Shown: positions 3,269 to 10,381 of the stretch, in pieces
Numbering within the stretch: position 1 is the stretch's first letter
Layout of the letters: every line of letters begins with the position of its first letter
DNA from: a virus
Taxonomy: Duplodnaviria > Heunggongvirae > Uroviricota > Caudoviricetes
Virus record (IMG/VR): IMGVR_UViG_3300021255_001482
Coordinates: 1-10,381 of that record
DNA: 10,381 nucleotides
Direction: 5' to 3' (one strand)
Notes under the pieces: model-generated
Told to the model about the DNA's origin: nothing
Databases searched by the model: none
The model's input: the letters and a program-made list of their open reading frames with translations, nothing else
Made by a program: the position numbers and the translations under genes

Positions 3269-6200
3269 ATGGCAATGAATGACAGCTTAAGAATAAGTAA
3301 TGATTGGAAAGTAGGCGATGATATTACTAATTATCCTGAAAAAGATTGGGAAAATGGTAATACAATTGAAGCAGATGCTCTTGATAATATTGAAATTGGA
3401 ATTAGTAATAATAGAACATTATTACAAAAAATAAATAAGATGTTAGATGATGATATTATTACTGCGATCAATAATTTAAATGAACGTACTAATAATATTG
3501 ACGAAGAAGGAATAATTGCTAGAGTAACTAGTAGTATTGGTAATAGTTTACAGGATGCTCAGGATAAAATAAATACAGCGTTAACTGAAGCCCAGCAATC
3601 AATAAACACTCAATTATCTAATTTTAATAATACTATTAGTTCATTAGTTACTATAGAGAATATATATGGTAGTAATACGATAGATAATGGCGAACAAACT
3701 TCTTTTAAAGCTTGGGTGAGTAGTCAAATTACTAATTTAGGAGTAGAAACAATAAAATCTAATGTTAATAATTTATTAAATCGTACTACTGCTTTAGAAG
3801 AACAAATAGGTGACGGTTCTGGAAGCGGAACTTTAATTTCCCGTATATCAACATTAGAAGCGTCAAATGGAAACATTCAATCTTCAATTAATAATATTCA
3901 ATCCTTAGTCGGTGAGGAATATTATAATAATTCTAGCTGGATAACAACTACTGATGATATTAGTACGCGTTTGCATGCTTTAGAGACTGCTACGGTAGAT
4001 TTATCTCCTATAGAAGCGCAAATTGATGCTATAAAAGGTGTATTAGGCATGGAAGGTGGTACAGCTGGTAGTACTTCTGATTTGGTTGGAGATGTAAATA
4101 CTGCCTTAACATTGCTATATGGATATACTATTACACAAGACCCAAATGATTCTAGTAAAAAAATAATTACAAGAAATAATAAACCTGATTTAAATGAATT
4201 TTCTCTTACTAATAGTTATCCAACTTTATATAATGATTTTTATAATGGTGCGAATGGTTCTGTTCCTGTTCAATTAGCGGGATTAGCAACAACAGTAAGT
4301 GAAAATACACAAAATATTCGCAAACTATCTACTAAAGTTGATACATATGATACTGCCATTGAATCTATTAATACAAAATATAGTGGTTCTGATATTGTTA
4401 CTTATCAAGACAGCGGGAATACGTATTTAGCACTTAAAAAAGATCGCACTCAAGACGTAGCACAATCAGAAGAAGATATTCAATCAGATACTAAAATTGA
4501 TTATGTTTTATTACCTAAAATGGGCGGCGGAGGCGGTACAGAGTATGAATTAGATGCCAACATCATACAACAAGAACAACTTCCAATCTTCCCAGTAAAT
4601 AAAATTATTACTTTAGGTAATACTTATGAAGCTAATTTTATTTGGCAGGTTACACAAAATAATACACCACAATCTTTGAATGGAGTTTTAACCGTTCGTT
4701 TAAATAATATAGTCGTTGATACTATATATATTATATCTAATACTAATTTTACATTGAATTTAGGACAATATATAACTTCTACTGGTAATAATTCATTTGT
4801 TCTATTAGTAAGTAATCCCGCGGTACGTCAGCGTACATTATATGATACTATTACTGTTTATAATGCAGTTTTAACTTCTACTTTTAATCATGACATAATC
4901 CAAACAGGCTCTACTATTAATTTCCCTTATGTTGCGGCAATTGGTTCTACAACTGTAGAAAAAACTTTACATATACAAATAGATGACAATGATATTACTT
5001 TAACAGGCAATGTAAGTACTTCTGAATCTTTACGTAGTGTTACTTTCGCAACCCCTGCTGCTGGAGACCATATATTACGAATTTGGTTCACAGCTGATAT
5101 TACAAGCAATGGCTCAAATTCAACACTTACATCTAATATTTTATCTTATGGTATACTTTGCGGTAAAAGCAACAATACACGAATCGTTACTAATCTTACA
5201 CAAACATCTATAGAACAATACAATGTTCTTAGATTTGATTATTTAGTAGTAACTCCAAACATGGAAACTACTCTAGTTAATTTTTATATCAATGATTCAG
5301 TAACGCCAATTCCTTATAGAGTTCCGGCAGAGCATAATACTTTTGAATATCCTGTAACTCAAGCTGGTGGCACGTTAACCATTCGTATTGAAGCTAATGG
5401 CGTGGAAAAAATTCTTCAATTAGAAGTTATTACAAGCACTACCTATGATTTTTCTATTGTAGATGAAGGATTAAAAGTAAAATTAGACGCTGAAGGTAGA
5501 ACAAATGTAGGAAATAATTCTGATTTAATGCAATGGAATAATACTGCTGTATTAGAAAATGATGATCCTTATAAACAGTATTATGGAACATTAAATAATA
5601 ATTTCTTATTTTATAGTGAAAATAATTATGACGGTTGGCTTCGTAATGCAAATGGCCATAACTTTTTAAGATTGCGTAACCGTGATAAAGTTAATATTAA
5701 TTTACCCGTGTTTAATTTTTCTATTTCCAATGGTAAAATTTTAGATGGTATGACTTTTGAAATTGATTTTCAAACTTCTAATGTTACTGATTATACAGCA
5801 CCAATTATTTCTTGCTTTGAGCAGGATAATGCGCAAAGTAAATCTATTATTTTTACGCCTCAAGGATTAACTATTAATAATACAACTGAATTAAAAACCC
5901 AATTTAAAGAAGAAGAACGCTTAACTATTACTATTGTTGTAGAAAATAGTGATAATGGTCCTTTATATCAATTATTTAAAATATATATCAATGGTATTTT
6001 ATCCGCGGCTACTATATATGAAACAACAGCCTTAAATTTTACAGATATTTCTAAAGGTATTATTCAAATCGGATCAGAAAAATGTACCTTAGATATTTAT
6101 TCTATTCGTTTTTATAATAGACCATTAACATTCCCAGAAGTTATTAAAAACTGGATTGCCAATGAAGATGTCTATCAAAATAAAATTAATTATTTTAATC

Positions 6201-9200
6201 GTAATAACTATGGTGCAAGTCAAGGCCGCATCACAATGACAGATAACGCTTTTACTTTAGCTTCTCCTAATACTCCTTATATGATTATCACCGGAGAAGG
6301 CGATTGGAATAATGAAGATGGTTTAAATGCAATGCCTACTACTAAAGCGGCAGGCACATTTTCTACTGAAGATAAACAAATCGTAGTAGAATATATTGAT
6401 CCTTTAGATAGCACAAAAAGTTTTACAACCAATTTTGAAGGTGGCTCAGTTGGAGTTGCCATTCAGGGTACTTCTTCTCAAGAATATAAAAGAAAAAACT
6501 ATAAAATTAAATTAAATGTTTTCCGACAAAATGGAATAACCCACGTTAAAAAACCCGCAAAATCTGCAAATAAAGATGAATATTATACAGATAATACTTA
6601 TACTGAATTAAAAGAGGGTTATACTGATAAAGGATATAAATTAATTGACACTTCTATTCCAACTTTTACTTTTTGTATAAAAGCTGATGTAGCTTCTTCT
6701 GAAAGTGCAAATAATGTGCAATTGGTAAAATTATATAATGATATAGTAAAAGGAATAGAATTGACTCCGCCACAAGGTGATAATCCTAATATCCGCCAAG
6801 GCGTTGATGGCTATCCAATGGTTGTTTGGTATTTTAATAATAAAACCAAACAATATATTTTCTTAGGAAAATATAATTTTAACAATGATAAAGGCACAGA
6901 AGAAGTATATGGATTTAAAGACGGTGATGAAAGTTGGGAAGTAGGTAATAATGAAAAATTATTATGCTTCTTTGATGAATCAGAAGATCCAACTTGGGAA
7001 AATTGGCGCACAGCTTTTGAAACACGTTTCCCAGATGATGATGATAGTCTGACAAAAAAAGAAGATCCATATACTGACGAACAGATTGCTGATCGTTTGG
7101 CTGGTTTGCGCGAAATGGTTCATTGGGTCAGTAGTAAAGTAGTATGGGATGATAATACTAAATCTAGCGTACATTTTGACATTACCCCTACTTCAGAAGA
7201 TACGGCTAATGCCGCACGTACTGGTAAATCAGCAGAGGAAGAAGCGTTTAAACGAGAATTTAAACAATATTTTAATATGAATTTAATTACATTCTTTTAT
7301 GTATTTACTGAGTTTTTCCTCATGGTTGATAATCGCGCGAAAAATATGTTTTTAACTCGTTATAAAGTTAGTAGTACCAGACCTAACAGCTCTAGTTGGC
7401 ATAATGCATATGATAGTAATGTAGTTGAACTTGCTTCTTCAACCTCTACACGTGATACGTATACTGGATGGTTTAGTTTACCTTATGATATGGATACTGC
7501 TATAGGTACTAATAATGTAGGTGTTTATACTTTTGATTATCATTATGAAAGTGGAGATTTACAACCAAGCGGTGCTGTCGTATTTAACGGACAAAAATCA
7601 AAATTATGGGTAGCTTTTGCGCAAGTATTCCCATCTGAAATTCAAAATATGTATGAACGATTTCAAACTAATATTTCATATACCTCTCTTGAAAATAGTT
7701 TTGAAGCACACCAAGGTGTGTGGTCTGAAACAGTCGTTAATGAAGATATGGATGCAAAATATATTGACTGGATTACTGCATATGACGCAAATAATCAGCC
7801 TTTAACTCGTGATACTCGTGCGCTCCCTATGTTGTTAGGTCTTAAAACAGAACAACGTAAATGGTGGCTAGAAAATAGATTTAAATATTTTAATAGTAAG
7901 TATGCAATAAACGCTAACACAGATTTTATTTCTTTAGGCGCGCGAAGCGGCCTATTACATATTCCAGTATCTGTTTATGCAGACGCTTATGTAACATTTA
8001 AAGTCGGTGCGCAAGATAGTGCTCCTACTACTATTCGTTTGGCGGCTGGACAGTCGGGAATAATTGAACGTTATGCTACAGGAGAGGGAGGCTCAGACCG
8101 CGTAGAGTCTAGTGTCTCACCAGCTTCTAGAATTAGTTCAATTGAAAATTTAGCATCATTAGACTTATTAAATGTTGATTTTACTAGAGCAACTAGACTT
8201 CAAACATTGCGTCTAGGAAGTGCTAATGTAATTAATACTCGTTTGACTTCTATTTCTTTATCTGGTAATAAACTATTAAGATTATTTGACTTACGTAATT
8301 ATGCTGCTTATACAGCAGACTTATCTGTAAATGAATGCTATAATTTGGAATACATTTATTTAAGTGGCACTCAAATTACAAATGTCAATTTACCACAAGG
8401 CGGCGTATTAAAAACTATTCAGTATCCTACAACTATTAATACTATTAGAATTATAAATCAGCCTTATTTAGAGAATTTAATTATAGGAGCATATTTACCA
8501 GCAGACGAGATTACTGATAGTGAGAACGAAGTTCTCTTTAATGGAAATAATGATTATAGTAATATTACTTCTATTATATTAGATAATATAAGTGAAAATA
8601 TAGATATTCCAACAATGATTAATAATGCTACTAATTTATCTAATTGTAGTTTAAGTAATTTAACTTTCAAAATGACTACTGAAGATTTCCGCGTTTTCTT
8701 TAATAAACTAGTTGCTGTTAATGCCTCTATTACTAATTGCATTATTTATCTTGAAACCGCAATGCCATCTGACTTTACTGTATCTGATATTACTTCAAAA
8801 TTTGATTTTAAAGTTTATGGTAAAACCGAAGAAGGATATGCAGAATATTATAATGTGCGTTTTTATGGATTTAGCAATGAATTAATTGGTACTAGTAGTG
8901 TAGTAAAAGGTGCTAGTATAGATGGCCCAACCTCATACTTTACTGATGAATATTTAGATAATTATAATGGTTTAACTGAAGAAAATAAACCAGAACATCC
9001 AACACGAGTTGGATTTGGTGGATGGAATCCTGCACCAGTAAATATTCAGAGTGATTTGAGCGCGCGACCAATATCGCGTGATGAATATAGAATGGAATAC
9101 CATTATCTAGATGAAAATGTACAACCCAAAATTACTTATACTTATTTAGCTCCAGGTGAACAAATTACTGGTATTATTATCAATGATTTTATTAAAGATT

Positions 9201-10231
9201 ACTATACTTATAAATATAAACACTGGACAAGTGATTCTAATATACCAACAAATTATCCGAATGATGATGAACGTGCGAATGTTTACGATACTGCCTCTAT
9301 TATATATAAACAAGCTAAAGTAGAAGCGTGGTATGCTGTTTATAATCATGATGAAGCGGCTACATATAATATTTCTGTATATAATACAAATATTCATGGA
9401 GAAAAAGTTGGCGAGCCCATAGCTGTATTGAAACGTACAGTGATTGCGGGAACAACCGCTGGGAATACAGTCACAGAAAGTGCTTTAGAACAATATAAAC
9501 CAGCTATAAATGTTTTAGCCGCGGATGGAAGTAATGAATTAAATGTACCAATAGATGAACGTAAATATCAATTCTTGGGTTGGAATCCTCGTATTGATTC
9601 TAACTTTAATTTACGAGTTACTGGTAATCAAGACATTTTGTTGACTTATTATAAAACAGATGATTATTATACTAATTATTTCTTAAATAAGTTAACCAAG
9701 TGTACATTAAATAATATTTCTTCAATTAATGATGGCGCGTTTTATCATAATACTAATTTTGTAAAATTAGAAACAAGAGCAACAACGATTGGAAAATATT
9801 GTTTCGCTAATTTTACTAATAATAATATTCGGAATTATTTTATTTTTAATGGTAATGGTGATATTACTTTAGGTGCCTACTGTTTTTATGGTATAAATAA
9901 TGCTATTATTATTTTTAATAATACTGGTCATATAATAGTAGATAACAGTTGTTTCTATAGAGTAACAAATTGTATTATTATAACACCTAATGCTACATTA
10001 CCAATTATTAATGCTACAGACGCTACAGGAAGTTTTGATAACTTCTTAAATAGTTCTAATACTCTTTATGTCAACTCAACAGTTTATAATGATATTTATA
10101 ATTCCGCAAATGCAAATAATTATTCTATTCCTACTTATTTAATAAACACAGCGAAAGAGCGTATTGTACCAATCACCGCAAACAATCAAGCTACAGTAAA
10201 TAGCCTTATTGAGGAGGCGAATAAAGCATGA
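3269..10231 (+). CDS. 2320-aa multidomain putative phage tail fibre/adhesin with CotH-like kinase, LamG-like, LRR, InlB B-repeat-like and BspA-LRR domains
   Basis: Uninterrupted 6963-nt ORF with a strong SD. N-terminal WENGNTIEADALDNIEIGI motif; coiled coil with RISTLE and RLHALE; MGGGGG hinge (4520-4537); then the domain motifs listed in the entries below. No N-terminal signal peptide is visible. Virion location is inferred. Confidence 0.85.
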   Translation: MAMNDSLRISNDWKVGDDITNYPEKDWENGNTIEADALDNIEIGISNNRTLLQKINKMLDDDIITAINNLNERTNNIDEEGIIARVTSSIGNSLQDAQDKINTALTEAQQSINTQLSNFNNTISSLVTIENIYGSNTIDNGEQTSFKAWVSSQITNLGVETIKSNVNNLLNRTTALEEQIGDGSGSGTLISRISTLEASNGNIQSSINNIQSLVGEEYYNNSSWITTTDDISTRLHALETATVDLSPIEAQIDAIKGVLGMEGGTAGSTSDLVGDVNTALTLLYGYTITQDPNDSSKKIITRNNKPDLNEFSLTNSYPTLYNDFYNGANGSVPVQLAGLATTVSENTQNIRKLSTKVDTYDTAIESINTKYSGSDIVTYQDSGNTYLALKKDRTQDVAQSEEDIQSDTKIDYVLLPKMGGGGGTEYELDANIIQQEQLPIFPVNKIITLGNTYEANFIWQVTQNNTPQSLNGVLTVRLNNIVVDTIYIISNTNFTLNLGQYITSTGNNSFVLLVSNPAVRQRTLYDTITVYNAVLTSTFNHDIIQTGSTINFPYVAAIGSTTVEKTLHIQIDDNDITLTGNVSTSESLRSVTFATPAAGDHILRIWFTADITSNGSNSTLTSNILSYGILCGKSNNTRIVTNLTQTSIEQYNVLRFDYLVVTPNMETTLVNFYINDSVTPIPYRVPAEHNTFEYPVTQAGGTLTIRIEANGVEKILQLEVITSTTYDFSIVDEGLKVKLDAEGRTNVGNNSDLMQWNNTAVLENDDPYKQYYGTLNNNFLFYSENNYDGWLRNANGHNFLRLRNRDKVNINLPVFNFSISNGKILDGMTFEIDFQTSNVTDYTAPIISCFEQDNAQSKSIIFTPQGLTINNTTELKTQFKEEERLTITIVVENSDNGPLYQLFKIYINGILSAATIYETTALNFTDISKGIIQIGSEKCTLDIYSIRFYNRPLTFPEVIKNWIANEDVYQNKINYFNRNNYGASQGRITMTDNAFTLASPNTPYMIITGEGDWNNEDGLNAMPTTKAAGTFSTEDKQIVVEYIDPLDSTKSFTTNFEGGSVGVAIQGTSSQEYKRKNYKIKLNVFRQNGITHVKKPAKSANKDEYYTDNTYTELKEGYTDKGYKLIDTSIPTFTFCIKADVASSESANNVQLVKLYNDIVKGIELTPPQGDNPNIRQGVDGYPMVVWYFNNKTKQYIFLGKYNFNNDKGTEEVYGFKDGDESWEVGNNEKLLCFFDESEDPTWENWRTAFETRFPDDDDSLTKKEDPYTDEQIADRLAGLREMVHWVSSKVVWDDNTKSSVHFDITPTSEDTANAARTGKSAEEEAFKREFKQYFNMNLITFFYVFTEFFLMVDNRAKNMFLTRYKVSSTRPNSSSWHNAYDSNVVELASSTSTRDTYTGWFSLPYDMDTAIGTNNVGVYTFDYHYESGDLQPSGAVVFNGQKSKLWVAFAQVFPSEIQNMYERFQTNISYTSLENSFEAHQGVWSETVVNEDMDAKYIDWITAYDANNQPLTRDTRALPMLLGLKTEQRKWWLENRFKYFNSKYAINANTDFISLGARSGLLHIPVSVYADAYVTFKVGAQDSAPTTIRLAAGQSGIIERYATGEGGSDRVESSVSPASRISSIENLASLDLLNVDFTRATRLQTLRLGSANVINTRLTSISLSGNKLLRLFDLRNYAAYTADLSVNECYNLEYIYLSGTQITNVNLPQGGVLKTIQYPTTINTIRIINQPYLENLIIGAYLPADEITDSENEVLFNGNNDYSNITSIILDNISENIDIPTMINNATNLSNCSLSNLTFKMTTEDFRVFFNKLVAVNASITNCIIYLETAMPSDFTVSDITSKFDFKVYGKTEEGYAEYYNVRFYGFSNELIGTSSVVKGASIDGPTSYFTDEYLDNYNGLTEENKPEHPTRVGFGGWNPAPVNIQSDLSARPISRDEYRMEYHYLDENVQPKITYTYLAPGEQITGIIINDFIKDYYTYKYKHWTSDSNIPTNYPNDDERANVYDTASIIYKQAKVEAWYAVYNHDEAATYNISVYNTNIHGEKVGEPIAVLKRTVIAGTTAGNTVTESALEQYKPAINVLAADGSNELNVPIDERKYQFLGWNPRIDSNFNLRVTGNQDILLTYYKTDDYYTNYFLNKLTKCTLNNISSINDGAFYHNTNFVKLETRATTIGKYCFANFTNNNIRNYFIFNGNGDITLGAYCFYGINNAIIIFNNTGHIIVDNSCFYRVTNCIIITPNATLPIINATDATGSFDNFLNSSNTLYVNSTVYNDIYNSANANNYSIPTYLINTAKERIVPITANNQATVNSLIEEANKA
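5468..6155 (+). other. LamG/concanavalin A-like beta-sandwich domain (within the giant ORF); boundaries approximate
   Basis: Starts GLKVKLDAEGRTN; contains TFEIDF and FKIYINGILS; ends IQIGSEKCTLDIYSIRFYNRPLT, a typical LamG C-terminal strand pattern. Confidence 0.65.
6270..7903 (+). other. CotH-like atypical protein kinase domain (within the giant ORF); boundaries approximate
   Basis: IQGTSSQEYKRKNYKIK (6461-6511), FCIKAD (6671-6688), GKYNFNNDK, MVDNRAKNMF (D at 7328, N at 7343), PYDMD (7481-7495) and WWLENRFKYF. Confidence 0.75.
8132..8660 (+). other. Leucine-rich repeat region (within the giant ORF); boundaries approximate
   Basis: LQTLRLG, LTSISLSGNKLLRLFDL, LEYIYLSGTQITNVNLP, LKTIQYP, LENLIIG and LSNCSLSNL give recurring LxxLxL periodicity. 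Confidence 0.7.
8846..9656 (+). other. About three InlB B-repeat/Flg_new-like units (within the giant ORF)
   Basis: Units begin YNVRFY, YRMEYHY and YNISVY, and contain GFGGWNP, YKYKHW and YQFLGWNP respectively; the last ends VTGNQDILLTYY. Confidence 0.6.
9704..10180 (+). other. BspA-type (LRR_5) repeats with C-terminal cap (within the giant ORF)
   Basis: SSINDGAFY, TTIGKYCFA, ITLGAYCFY and IVDNSCFY repeats, then LYVNSTVYN...ERIVPI, resembling the usual BspA C-cap. Confidence 0.7.
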
Positions 10232-10381
10232 TATATGATCCAAGTATAAGTTTAGCAAAATTAGAGGACTTTTTTTCAAAGTCCTCTAATTTAACTGAAA
10301 TCAATATACCCGAATTAATTAGTATTGATGATAATCCTAGAGCCAACTATAATGGAATAGTATTATTAGATACAAATGCAA
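10228..10381 (+). CDS. 5' end of a further gene, probably a BspA-type LRR protein; runs off the window
   Basis: SD GAGGAGG (10211-10217) lies inside the last codons of the giant ORF, with an ATGA overlap. The open frame reads MIYDPSISLAKLEDFFSKSSNLTEINIPELISIDDNPRANYNGIVLLDTNA...; NLTEINIPELISI fits the BspA LxxIxIPxxxxI motif. Confidence 0.7.
   Translation, partial: MIYDPSISLAKLEDFFSKSSNLTEINIPELISIDDNPRANYNGIVLLDTNA
10258..10292. repeat. Perfect 15-bp inverted repeat with 5-nt loop
   Basis: AAATTAGAGGACTTT (10258-10272), TTTTC, AAAGTCCTCTAATTT (10278-10292); the arms are exact reverse complements. Confidence 0.9.

Follow-up and report, generated by a model that had tools for sequence, protein, structure and literature searches.

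A divergent CotH-type kinase domain between lectin-like and leucine-rich-repeat domains in a giant phage protein

Introduction

What a kinase domain of the kind known from spore coats might do in the middle of a giant phage protein is the question raised by a 10,381-nt stretch of tailed-phage DNA (G+C content 35%). This stretch, referred to as the window, comprises the first 10,381 nt of the 103,239-nt IMG/VR virus record IMGVR_UViG_3300021255_001482, whose completeness was estimated by CheckV at 58%. Its plus strand carries, in one uninterrupted frame (positions 3269–10231), a giant open reading frame (ORF) for a multidomain protein of 2320 amino acids (aa) that appears to be of the tail-fibre class. 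An initial annotation, made from the sequence alone, had placed a CotH-like kinase with an apparently complete active site within this putative fibre. The present analysis shows that aa ~1029–1556 of the protein constitute a divergent atypical protein kinase domain of the CotH family, and that the core to which they belong, consisting of a LamG-like, a CotH-type and a leucine-rich-repeat (LRR) domain, is common to a very large family of giant proteins from gut and rumen phages and prophages. The best explanation overall, to which we assign a probability of roughly 55%, is a tail-fibre-class protein whose CotH domain acts as a phosphotransferase at the time of assembly.

That large phage proteins can carry a CotH annotation was already known, as had been pointed out at the outset, and the literature agrees. 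Proteins of ~2000 aa with CotH and Laminin_G_3 motifs make up category 'f1' of the targets of diversity-generating retroelements (DGRs) (Wu et al. 2018, PMC5758913), a cluster of viral DGR targets with a CotH-like kinase has been described as PC_00012 (Roux et al., bioRxiv 10.1101/2020.04.01.020958), and variable proteins of Bacteroides with more than 2,000 aa combine CotH active-site motifs with carbohydrate-binding motifs and LRRs (domain group 3; Macadangdang et al. 2024, bioRxiv 10.1101/2024.11.15.621889). A fourth paper, of 2021, describes the fusion as well (PMC8008677). The fusion of LamG, CotH and LRR domains is, in other words, already documented, and the window copy adds a DGR-less, annotation-resistant member. 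Few unexplained proteins are as widespread in gut and rumen phages, including prophages in Clostridia, Bacteroidales and other gut or rumen bacteria, as the giant fibre proteins with a CotH domain, and one member of the family is the protein hypermutated by the ubiquitous Hankyphage. If the domain is an active kinase, phages would carry a kind of enzyme otherwise known from spore-coat assembly and from the eukaryotic secretory pathway, and phosphorylation would have to be reckoned with as a new factor when virions assemble or hosts are recognised.

Assignment of the domain to the CotH family

The structure of aa 1029–1560 was modelled with AlphaFold2 on an alignment of 106 homologous domain segments, yielding a mean predicted local distance difference test score (pLDDT) of 91 and a predicted template-modelling score (pTM) of 0.92. 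When the model was compared with the PDB using Foldseek, only two entries gave significant matches (E 3e-7, target-normalised TM 0.66), both of them structures of Bacillus cereus CotH (5JDA and 5JD9). An alignment with 5JDA in VIA-align superimposed 322 of its 359 residues at a root-mean-square deviation (rmsd) of 3.3 Å with a Z-score of 24.7, which bears out the CotH-type atypical kinase fold that had been proposed. The next matches were other atypical kinases and followed at a distance, with Z-scores of 10.7 for CtkA, 9.1 for HipA, ~7 for PI3K and 6.9 for Fam20C. The segment is thus almost certainly homologous to the CotH fold. Fold and family profile together place its limits at aa 1029–1556 (6353–7936, plus strand) rather than at aa 1001–1545 (6270–7903), as given initially.

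Fam20C, the Golgi casein kinase, likewise has an atypical, secretory-type protein-kinase-like fold, and CotH has been called distantly related to it (PMC7821199). A close kinship of the window domain to Fam20C (4KQA, 4KQB) was not supported, the Z-scores of 6.4–6.9 and the rmsd of ~5.3 Å lying in the generic range for kinase folds: the structural match was no better than that to PI3K or HipA, and sequence similarity to the giant protein was undetectable. The relationship to Fam20C mentioned in the initial annotation is thus only a distant one.

To collect relatives of the domain, 1.84 billion cluster representatives (clusters at 50% identity) were searched exhaustively with phmmer, the kinase segment serving as query. 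The search retrieved 1,390 representatives at E≤1e-3, of which 354 reached E≤1e-30. Among the 150 best-scoring relatives, to which the counts of listed relatives given below refer, nearly all were 1,500–2,900 aa long. The residue counts were taken from the alignment of the 106 domain segments, which were 35–97% identical to the query and had a mean column identity of 25%. The Pfam CotH family (PF08757) was matched by 76 of these 106 segments, with a best E-value of 1.2e-15. To compare the whole clade with canonical members of the family, 22 CotH domains from Clostridia genomes (180–240 bits to PF08757) were assembled as a reference set. A profile-profile alignment of the two sets in hhalign covered the C-lobe with a probability of 96.8% (E 2.7e-10), and the N-lobes alone aligned with a probability of 78% (E 1.8e-5). 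At the level of sequence, the motif match to the family lies far beyond chance, given the 1,390 relatives and the coincidence of the listed residues with invariant columns. Searches of PDB sequences, either with the segment itself (phmmer) or with the 106-sequence profile, returned no match, and neither did a megablast search of the whole window against the phages in GenBank.

The window domain shares with Bacillus CotH the atypical kinase fold, the G-x-S-S...K-x-Y-K pattern of the N-lobe, the catalytic Asp and the metal-binding Asp, at a sequence identity of ~12%. The two differ in that Bacillus CotH is a protein of ~360 aa, whereas the phage domain is embedded in 2320 aa and contains ~100 aa of insertions, ~30 of which lie between the catalytic loop and the DxD motif. 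Moreover, the phage clade has an invariant Lys-Asn pair after the catalytic Asp as well as an invariant Lys (K1138) for which canonical CotH offers no reliable match.

Conservation of the active site

All of the motifs quoted in the initial annotation (QGTSS, KRKNYKIK, CIKAD, VDNRAKN and YDMD) were found at the residues given there, within one intact ORF. The N-lobe motif QGTSS..Y..KNYKIK (6464–6511) comprises QGTSS at aa 1066–1070 (6464–6478) and, overlapping its second half, KRKNYKIK at aa 1074–1081 (6488–6511). It is followed by CIKAD at aa 1136–1140 (6674–6688), by the catalytic loop VDNRAKN at aa 1353–1359 (7325–7345) and by the metal-binding motif YDMD at aa 1406–1409 (7484–7495). Q1066 to S1070, Y1073, K1076, N1077, K1138, D1140, K1358, N1359, Y1406, D1407 and D1409 were kept in 106/106 aligned sequences, and D1354 in 105. 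As judged from this alignment, D1354, K1358-N1359 and D1407-x-D1409 are under strong purifying selection.

Profile alignment with the canonical set likewise identified the catalytic loop and the metal-binding motif. D1354 aligned with the Asp of the canonical catalytic loop ('NxD'), which is nearly invariant, and D1407, a DFG-like Asp, with the invariant Asp in 'PWDFD' of canonical CotH. These two residues are separated by 23 positions both in the consensus of the phage clade and in that of canonical CotH, which is equal to the distance between D228 and D251 of B. subtilis CotH. The B. subtilis variants D228Q and D251A are catalytically dead (PMC7821199). Because of the equal spacing, and without recourse to a direct alignment with the B. 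subtilis protein, we infer that D1354 and D1407 correspond to D228 and D251; the two catalytic Asp residues noticed initially are thus present and essentially invariant, with equivalents that are required for activity. In the window protein itself, the distance between D1354 and D1407 is 53 residues instead of 23. Rich in Ser and Thr and missing from the family consensus, these ~30 additional residues sit between the two motifs, within a lineage-specific stretch (aa 1362–1402; 7352–7474).

In the N-lobe, the QGTSS..KNYKIK block aligned with its canonical CotH counterpart 'RGxSS....KSYKI' in a local hhalign alignment, and the topology of the model together with its invariance suggests that it may serve as a nucleotide-binding loop. 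K1138 ends a strand (model E106–110) that precedes a long helix (model H120–135), a position like that of the β3 Lys of kinases, so that model topology and invariance likewise point to a putative second kinase Lys.

Beyond the aligned segments, QGTSS, the KN pair, the D..KN loop and YDxD were all retained in the homologue of NatCom_3357, in Hankyphage p00 (23% identity) and in gp353 of Bacillus phage G (24%). Among the residues listed, only D1140 and R1356 had changed in these distant relatives, to Asn and Leu, respectively, both in gp353. Catalytic residues thus persist down to 23% identity. Free variation of these residues among homologues, which had been named at the outset as a sign against a kinase, was not seen (105–106 of 106 kept). 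The near-invariance of the catalytic set across 106 relatives makes a freely drifting pseudokinase unlikely, and it is quite likely that the CotH domain is a catalytically competent enzyme.

Architecture of the giant protein

The kinase domain lies, as described initially, between a lectin-like domain and an LRR domain, an arrangement now established through Pfam matches of relatives (Laminin_G_3 type) on one side and VIA matches to LRR proteins on the other. The LamG/concanavalin-A-like lectin-type domain (aa ~770–1030; 5576–6358) is located directly N-terminal to it; 142 of the 150 listed relatives have the segment in the same position. Laminin_G_3 was matched by 10 of 46 aligned members of the segment (best E 3.6e-7); the window's own copy had no match in Pfam. 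Directly after the kinase domain, a leucine-rich-repeat solenoid was placed at aa ~1575–1800 (7991–8668), and ~180 aa of sequence following the domain are common to 144/150 listed relatives. An AlphaFold2 model of aa 1556–1900 (pLDDT 90) gave no significant E-value in Foldseek (best 7e-3). The assignment was made because the top 50 matches in VIA were uniformly LRR proteins, with Z-scores of 10–13 over model residues 20–245.

The two ends of the protein are far less widely shared. The first ~480 aa (3269–4708), a variable region that could serve as anchor or stalk, are common to only 6 of the 150 listed relatives, all of them close; judging by its sequence, this region is probably a coiled coil, and its sole Pfam match is to the coiled-coil family DUF7310 (weak; E 0.003). 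The last 420 aa are common to only 10–11 relatives, and the C-terminal tip (aa ~2130–2320; 9656–10228) to only 10 close ones. The tips of five close relatives match the Pfam family LRR_5, one of them above the threshold (30.2 bits) and the rest below; the window's own tip has no Pfam match, C-type lectin included. By sequence comparison, the tip thus looks like a set of BspA-type LRR-like repeats and not like a C-type-lectin DGR target. A conserved LamG/CotH/LRR core with exchangeable ends is the pattern that would be expected of a phage fibre.

The giant ORF starts at an ATG that is preceded by a GGAGG ribosome-binding site with a gap of 8 nt.

Relatives and their genomic neighbourhoods

CotH-type domains of this kind are carried by at least 494 viral contigs in IMG/VR. 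The BFVD yielded 21 viral models at E≤1e-3, some of which are labelled 'CotH kinase protein' or 'Spore coat protein H kinase fold'. In bacterial genomes, a total of 202 matches were obtained, mostly in metagenome-assembled genomes of gut and rumen Clostridia and Bacteroidales, and the neighbourhoods of 80 of these loci were inspected. At least 16 of the 80 encode a DGR-type reverse transcriptase 3–5 kb downstream of the match to the kinase domain, and at least 16 have a homologue of the tape-measure gene upstream. In phage NatCom_3357, the homologue follows the genes for the tape measure, Dit and two more proteins and precedes those for holin and endolysin.

A similar position is occupied by the homologue of Hankyphage p00, which comes after a minor tail protein gene. 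Its 3' end bears the variable repeat of a DGR whose template repeat and reverse transcriptase gene lie further downstream. This variable protein (~2245 aa) has the same LamG-like/CotH/LRR core, belongs to the same size class (~2000–2400 aa), retains all catalytic motifs and scores 278 bits with the family profile at ~23% identity to the window protein. The literature names it as the tail fibre and describes the DGR acting on it as active (PMC12135933). A mass-spectrometry table of Hankyphage particles precipitated with polyethylene glycol lists tail proteins and also non-structural ones; because its labels are ambiguous for the giant protein and non-structural proteins are present, it was not counted as proof of incorporation into the virion. 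Hankyphage-type proteins have a C-type-lectin variable region, whereas the window protein lacks one and has its BspA-type LRR-like tip instead. The window phage is, in addition, much larger than Hankyphage (at least 103 kb), and its giant gene lies outside a recognisable tail module. Here, in a lineage that has no DGR and with the gene outside a classical tail module, the LamG-CotH-LRR core has been retained together with all of its catalytic residues, which implies that the function of the kinase is not tied to hypervariation.

The best structural match in the BFVD (E 2e-21) was gp353 (2055 aa) of Bacillus phage G, another large phage. It carries the same CotH-type domain (24% identity, 219 bits with the family profile) with QGTSS, D..KN and YDxD kept, whereas its flanking domains and host differ from those of the window protein. 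In phage G, a gene for a metallophosphoesterase (gp352, 866 aa) is located directly upstream of gp353 (phage G 259582–268352). This is not so in the window genome: no Metallophos domain was found in the genes adjoining the giant ORF, and PF00149 matches nothing in the record but two small ORFs (222 aa at 44 kb and 272 aa at 75 kb), 34–64 kb away. When the 80 bacterial loci were searched with gp352, no such gene was detected beside the CotH gene. Because the window phage is uncultured, it opens no new experimental route; Bacillus phage G and Hankyphage lend themselves better to experiments.

Proposed role of the domain

In the scheme that we consider the best explanation, the giant protein would be a tail-fibre-class virion appendage whose ends are variable, the N-terminal one serving as stalk or anchor and the C-terminal one, of the BspA-type LRR kind, as binding tip. 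Its sequence reads as lacking a recognisable signal peptide, and it would be made inside the infected cell, where ATP and Mg/Mn are present. There, the CotH domain would phosphorylate either itself or co-assembling fibre and tail proteins during assembly, and the LamG and LRR domains on either side of it would keep the substrate in place or, at a later stage, attach to the surface of the host. The analogy is with Bacillus CotH, which is likewise part of a large self-assembling protein structure: as a structural component of the coat, it phosphorylates CotB and CotG during construction of the spore coat (PMC7821199). On this analogy, the domain may be a protein kinase that acts during assembly, a step that we propose tentatively, at somewhat less than even odds. 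That the giant protein is a component of the virion we regard as likely.

Several observations weigh against this scheme. The direct match of the window's own segment to PF08757 reaches only 15.6–16.2 bits against a gathering score of 23.8, and a six-frame search of the whole record with PF08757 gave no match. Because the direct Pfam match stays below the threshold, the CotH assignment rests on the homologues, the profile-profile comparison and the structure. The 150 relatives used for the counts were picked by score from 1,390, which slightly favours sequences that keep the motifs. K1138 has no reliable counterpart in canonical CotH, the N-lobe profile alignment being reliable only for QGTSS..KNYKIK, and phage proteins with CotH domains were still termed 'currently unstudied' in 2021 (PMC8008677). 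As for substrates, no Ser/Lys/Arg-rich repeat of the CotB/CotG type was seen in the giant protein, and the neighbouring genes, whose repeats were not screened, match no CotB/CotG-like family; Bacillus CotH, by contrast, has CotB and CotG as substrates, and nothing CotB- or CotG-like is known for the window protein. A kinase exposed on a virion is normally without ATP once it is outside the cell. Finally, the genomic position is unusual for a fibre gene. Upstream of the giant ORF lie Thg1-like, dCMP-deaminase-like and nucleotidyltransferase-like genes together with small ORFs, and in a 97%-identical relative (65-kb contig) the same arrangement continues further upstream without tail genes. The giant gene is thus situated outside a recognisable tail module, with the closest tail-fibre-like genes ~10 kb downstream. 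The phage fibre of the initial annotation accordingly stands insofar as relatives occupy prophage tail modules, whereas the gene itself lies among genes of nucleotide and RNA metabolism and has no adjoining tape-measure gene.

The location of the gene speaks for a non-structural giant protein that acts within the infected cell or is set free upon lysis, such as a kinase for host takeover or an adhesin-like factor modifying neighbouring cells. Both in the window phage and in the 97%-identical relative, it is surrounded by nucleotide- and RNA-metabolism genes and small, early-type genes, and no tape-measure or baseplate genes are found within 10 kb upstream. The matching PHROG families are without assigned function (phrog_14959, E 1.7e-84, and phrog_24896), and the non-structural proteins in the Hankyphage mass-spectrometry sample deprive that data set of its value as proof of incorporation. 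Against this stand the relatives whose gene follows those for tape measure, Dit and minor tail proteins, in the place of a receptor-binding protein; the DGRs that diversify the C-terminal tip at no fewer than 16 of the 80 loci, which fits receptor binding; the modular exchange of N- and C-terminal ends, which is typical of fibres; and the presence of tail-fibre-like genes among the downstream neighbours. We therefore consider a protein that is not part of the virion very unlikely.

If the protein is indeed a fibre, its domain could still be non-catalytic, serving either as a rigid structural or ligand-binding module or as a nucleotide sensor that changes the conformation of the fibre. Fungal CotH proteins serve as host-cell ligands (PMC9973265), as exemplified by the invasin CotH3, which binds GRP78, and the phage domain sits between two domains of binding type, in a virion that normally has no ATP outside the cell. 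Nucleotide-binding pseudokinases can, furthermore, retain the Lys and the DFG-type Asp. A pure scaffold would, however, not be expected to keep the full catalytic set at 23–24% identity, nor to show D1354 in 105 and K1358, N1359, D1407 and D1409 in all 106 of the aligned sequences when the mean column identity is 25%, which makes a non-catalytic role decidedly unlikely. A domain that is active but no protein kinase presents a different case, since the conserved catalytic Asp, the Lys-Asn pair and DxD do not specify the acceptor. Among the relatives of Fam20C, Fam20B is a xylose kinase and POMK an O-mannose kinase, and the kinase fold also supports other chemistry, as in AMPylation by SelO and glutamylation by SidJ, the latter being a kinase-fold glutamylase that appeared among the weak structural matches (Z 3.0). 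The LamG domain, which is of the carbohydrate-binding type and fused directly upstream in 142/150 relatives, might present a carbohydrate of the host envelope or capsule, so that a glycan or small molecule would be phosphorylated, or AMPylation or glutamylation catalysed. This alternative appears unlikely in view of the CotH match (Z 24.7), which is far closer than that to any non-protein kinase, and of the fact that an acceptor on the host surface would leave the enzyme without an obvious source of ATP outside the cell; the characterised CotH enzymes, moreover, are all Ser/Thr protein kinases (PMC7821199). An assembly-time phosphotransferase in a tail-fibre-class protein thus remains our preferred reading.

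A more speculative variant, to which we give little credence, has the virion-displayed CotH domain work outside the cell with nucleotide from the gut or rumen lumen or leaked from the target cell, either phosphorylating a protein or glycan on the surface of the host that is bound by the LamG and LRR domains or acting as an ATP-sensing switch that licenses irreversible adsorption. If true, such a virion-displayed kinase or sensor would represent an enzymatic receptor-binding apparatus of a new kind, conserved in hundreds of gut phages with or without a DGR.

Genes flanking the giant ORF and annotation of related records

Standard annotation, whether by Pfam at its threshold or by NCBIfam, misses the CotH domain of the window protein. 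A Pfam search with the whole 2320-aa protein returned nothing but a weak match to LRR_4, and NCBIfam returned no match.

A reading of the window protein as a DGR target was rejected, there being neither a reverse transcriptase nor a template/variable repeat pair in the 103 kb of the record, nor a C-terminal lectin match. A search with PF00078 revealed no reverse transcriptase in the 103-kb record (58% complete), and no part of the giant ORF is repeated elsewhere in it in the manner of such a repeat pair.

At the beginning of the window (positions 1–1487), three consecutive genes have PHROG matches to tRNA-His guanylyltransferase (Thg1-like), dCMP deaminase and nucleotidyltransferase. In the 97%-identical relative, a gene for an NMN (nicotinamide mononucleotide) transporter lies ~8 kb upstream of the copy of the giant gene.

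Downstream, the giant ORF is followed by a coupled ORF of 471 aa, a CBM_5_12 protein gene, a gene resembling that for phosphoribosyl pyrophosphate (PRPP) synthetase, two tail-fibre-like genes (~10 kb) and an endolysin-like gene. The TGA stop codon of the giant ORF overlaps the ATG of the coupled ORF (ATGA), which begins at 10228, runs to the end of the window at 10381 and continues to 11643 of the record on the plus strand. Its product, which could be a partner, chaperone or substrate of the giant protein, has no match in Pfam or PHROG, and its orthologue in the 97%-identical relative has a faint match to DUF6273. The second gene past the giant ORF (record 11594–12283) encodes a protein of 229 aa with a CBM_5_12 module (26.9 bits, barely over the threshold) and a weak match to a tail-fibre PHROG. 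The homologue of ribose-phosphate pyrophosphokinase (PRPP synthetase; PHROG E 1e-52) is encoded at record 13363–14181, between the giant gene and the tail-fibre-like genes. A protein of 313 aa (record 19970–20911) matches PHROGs for the N-terminal part of tail fibres, and its orthologue in the relative is annotated as Mtd_N, the N-terminal domain of the DGR tail fibre of phage BPP-1.

A CotH domain 64% identical to that of the window is present in IMGVR_UViG_3300031867_004305, which may be a near-complete relative; its length of 181,042 nt agrees with the full size implied by the CheckV completeness of 58%.

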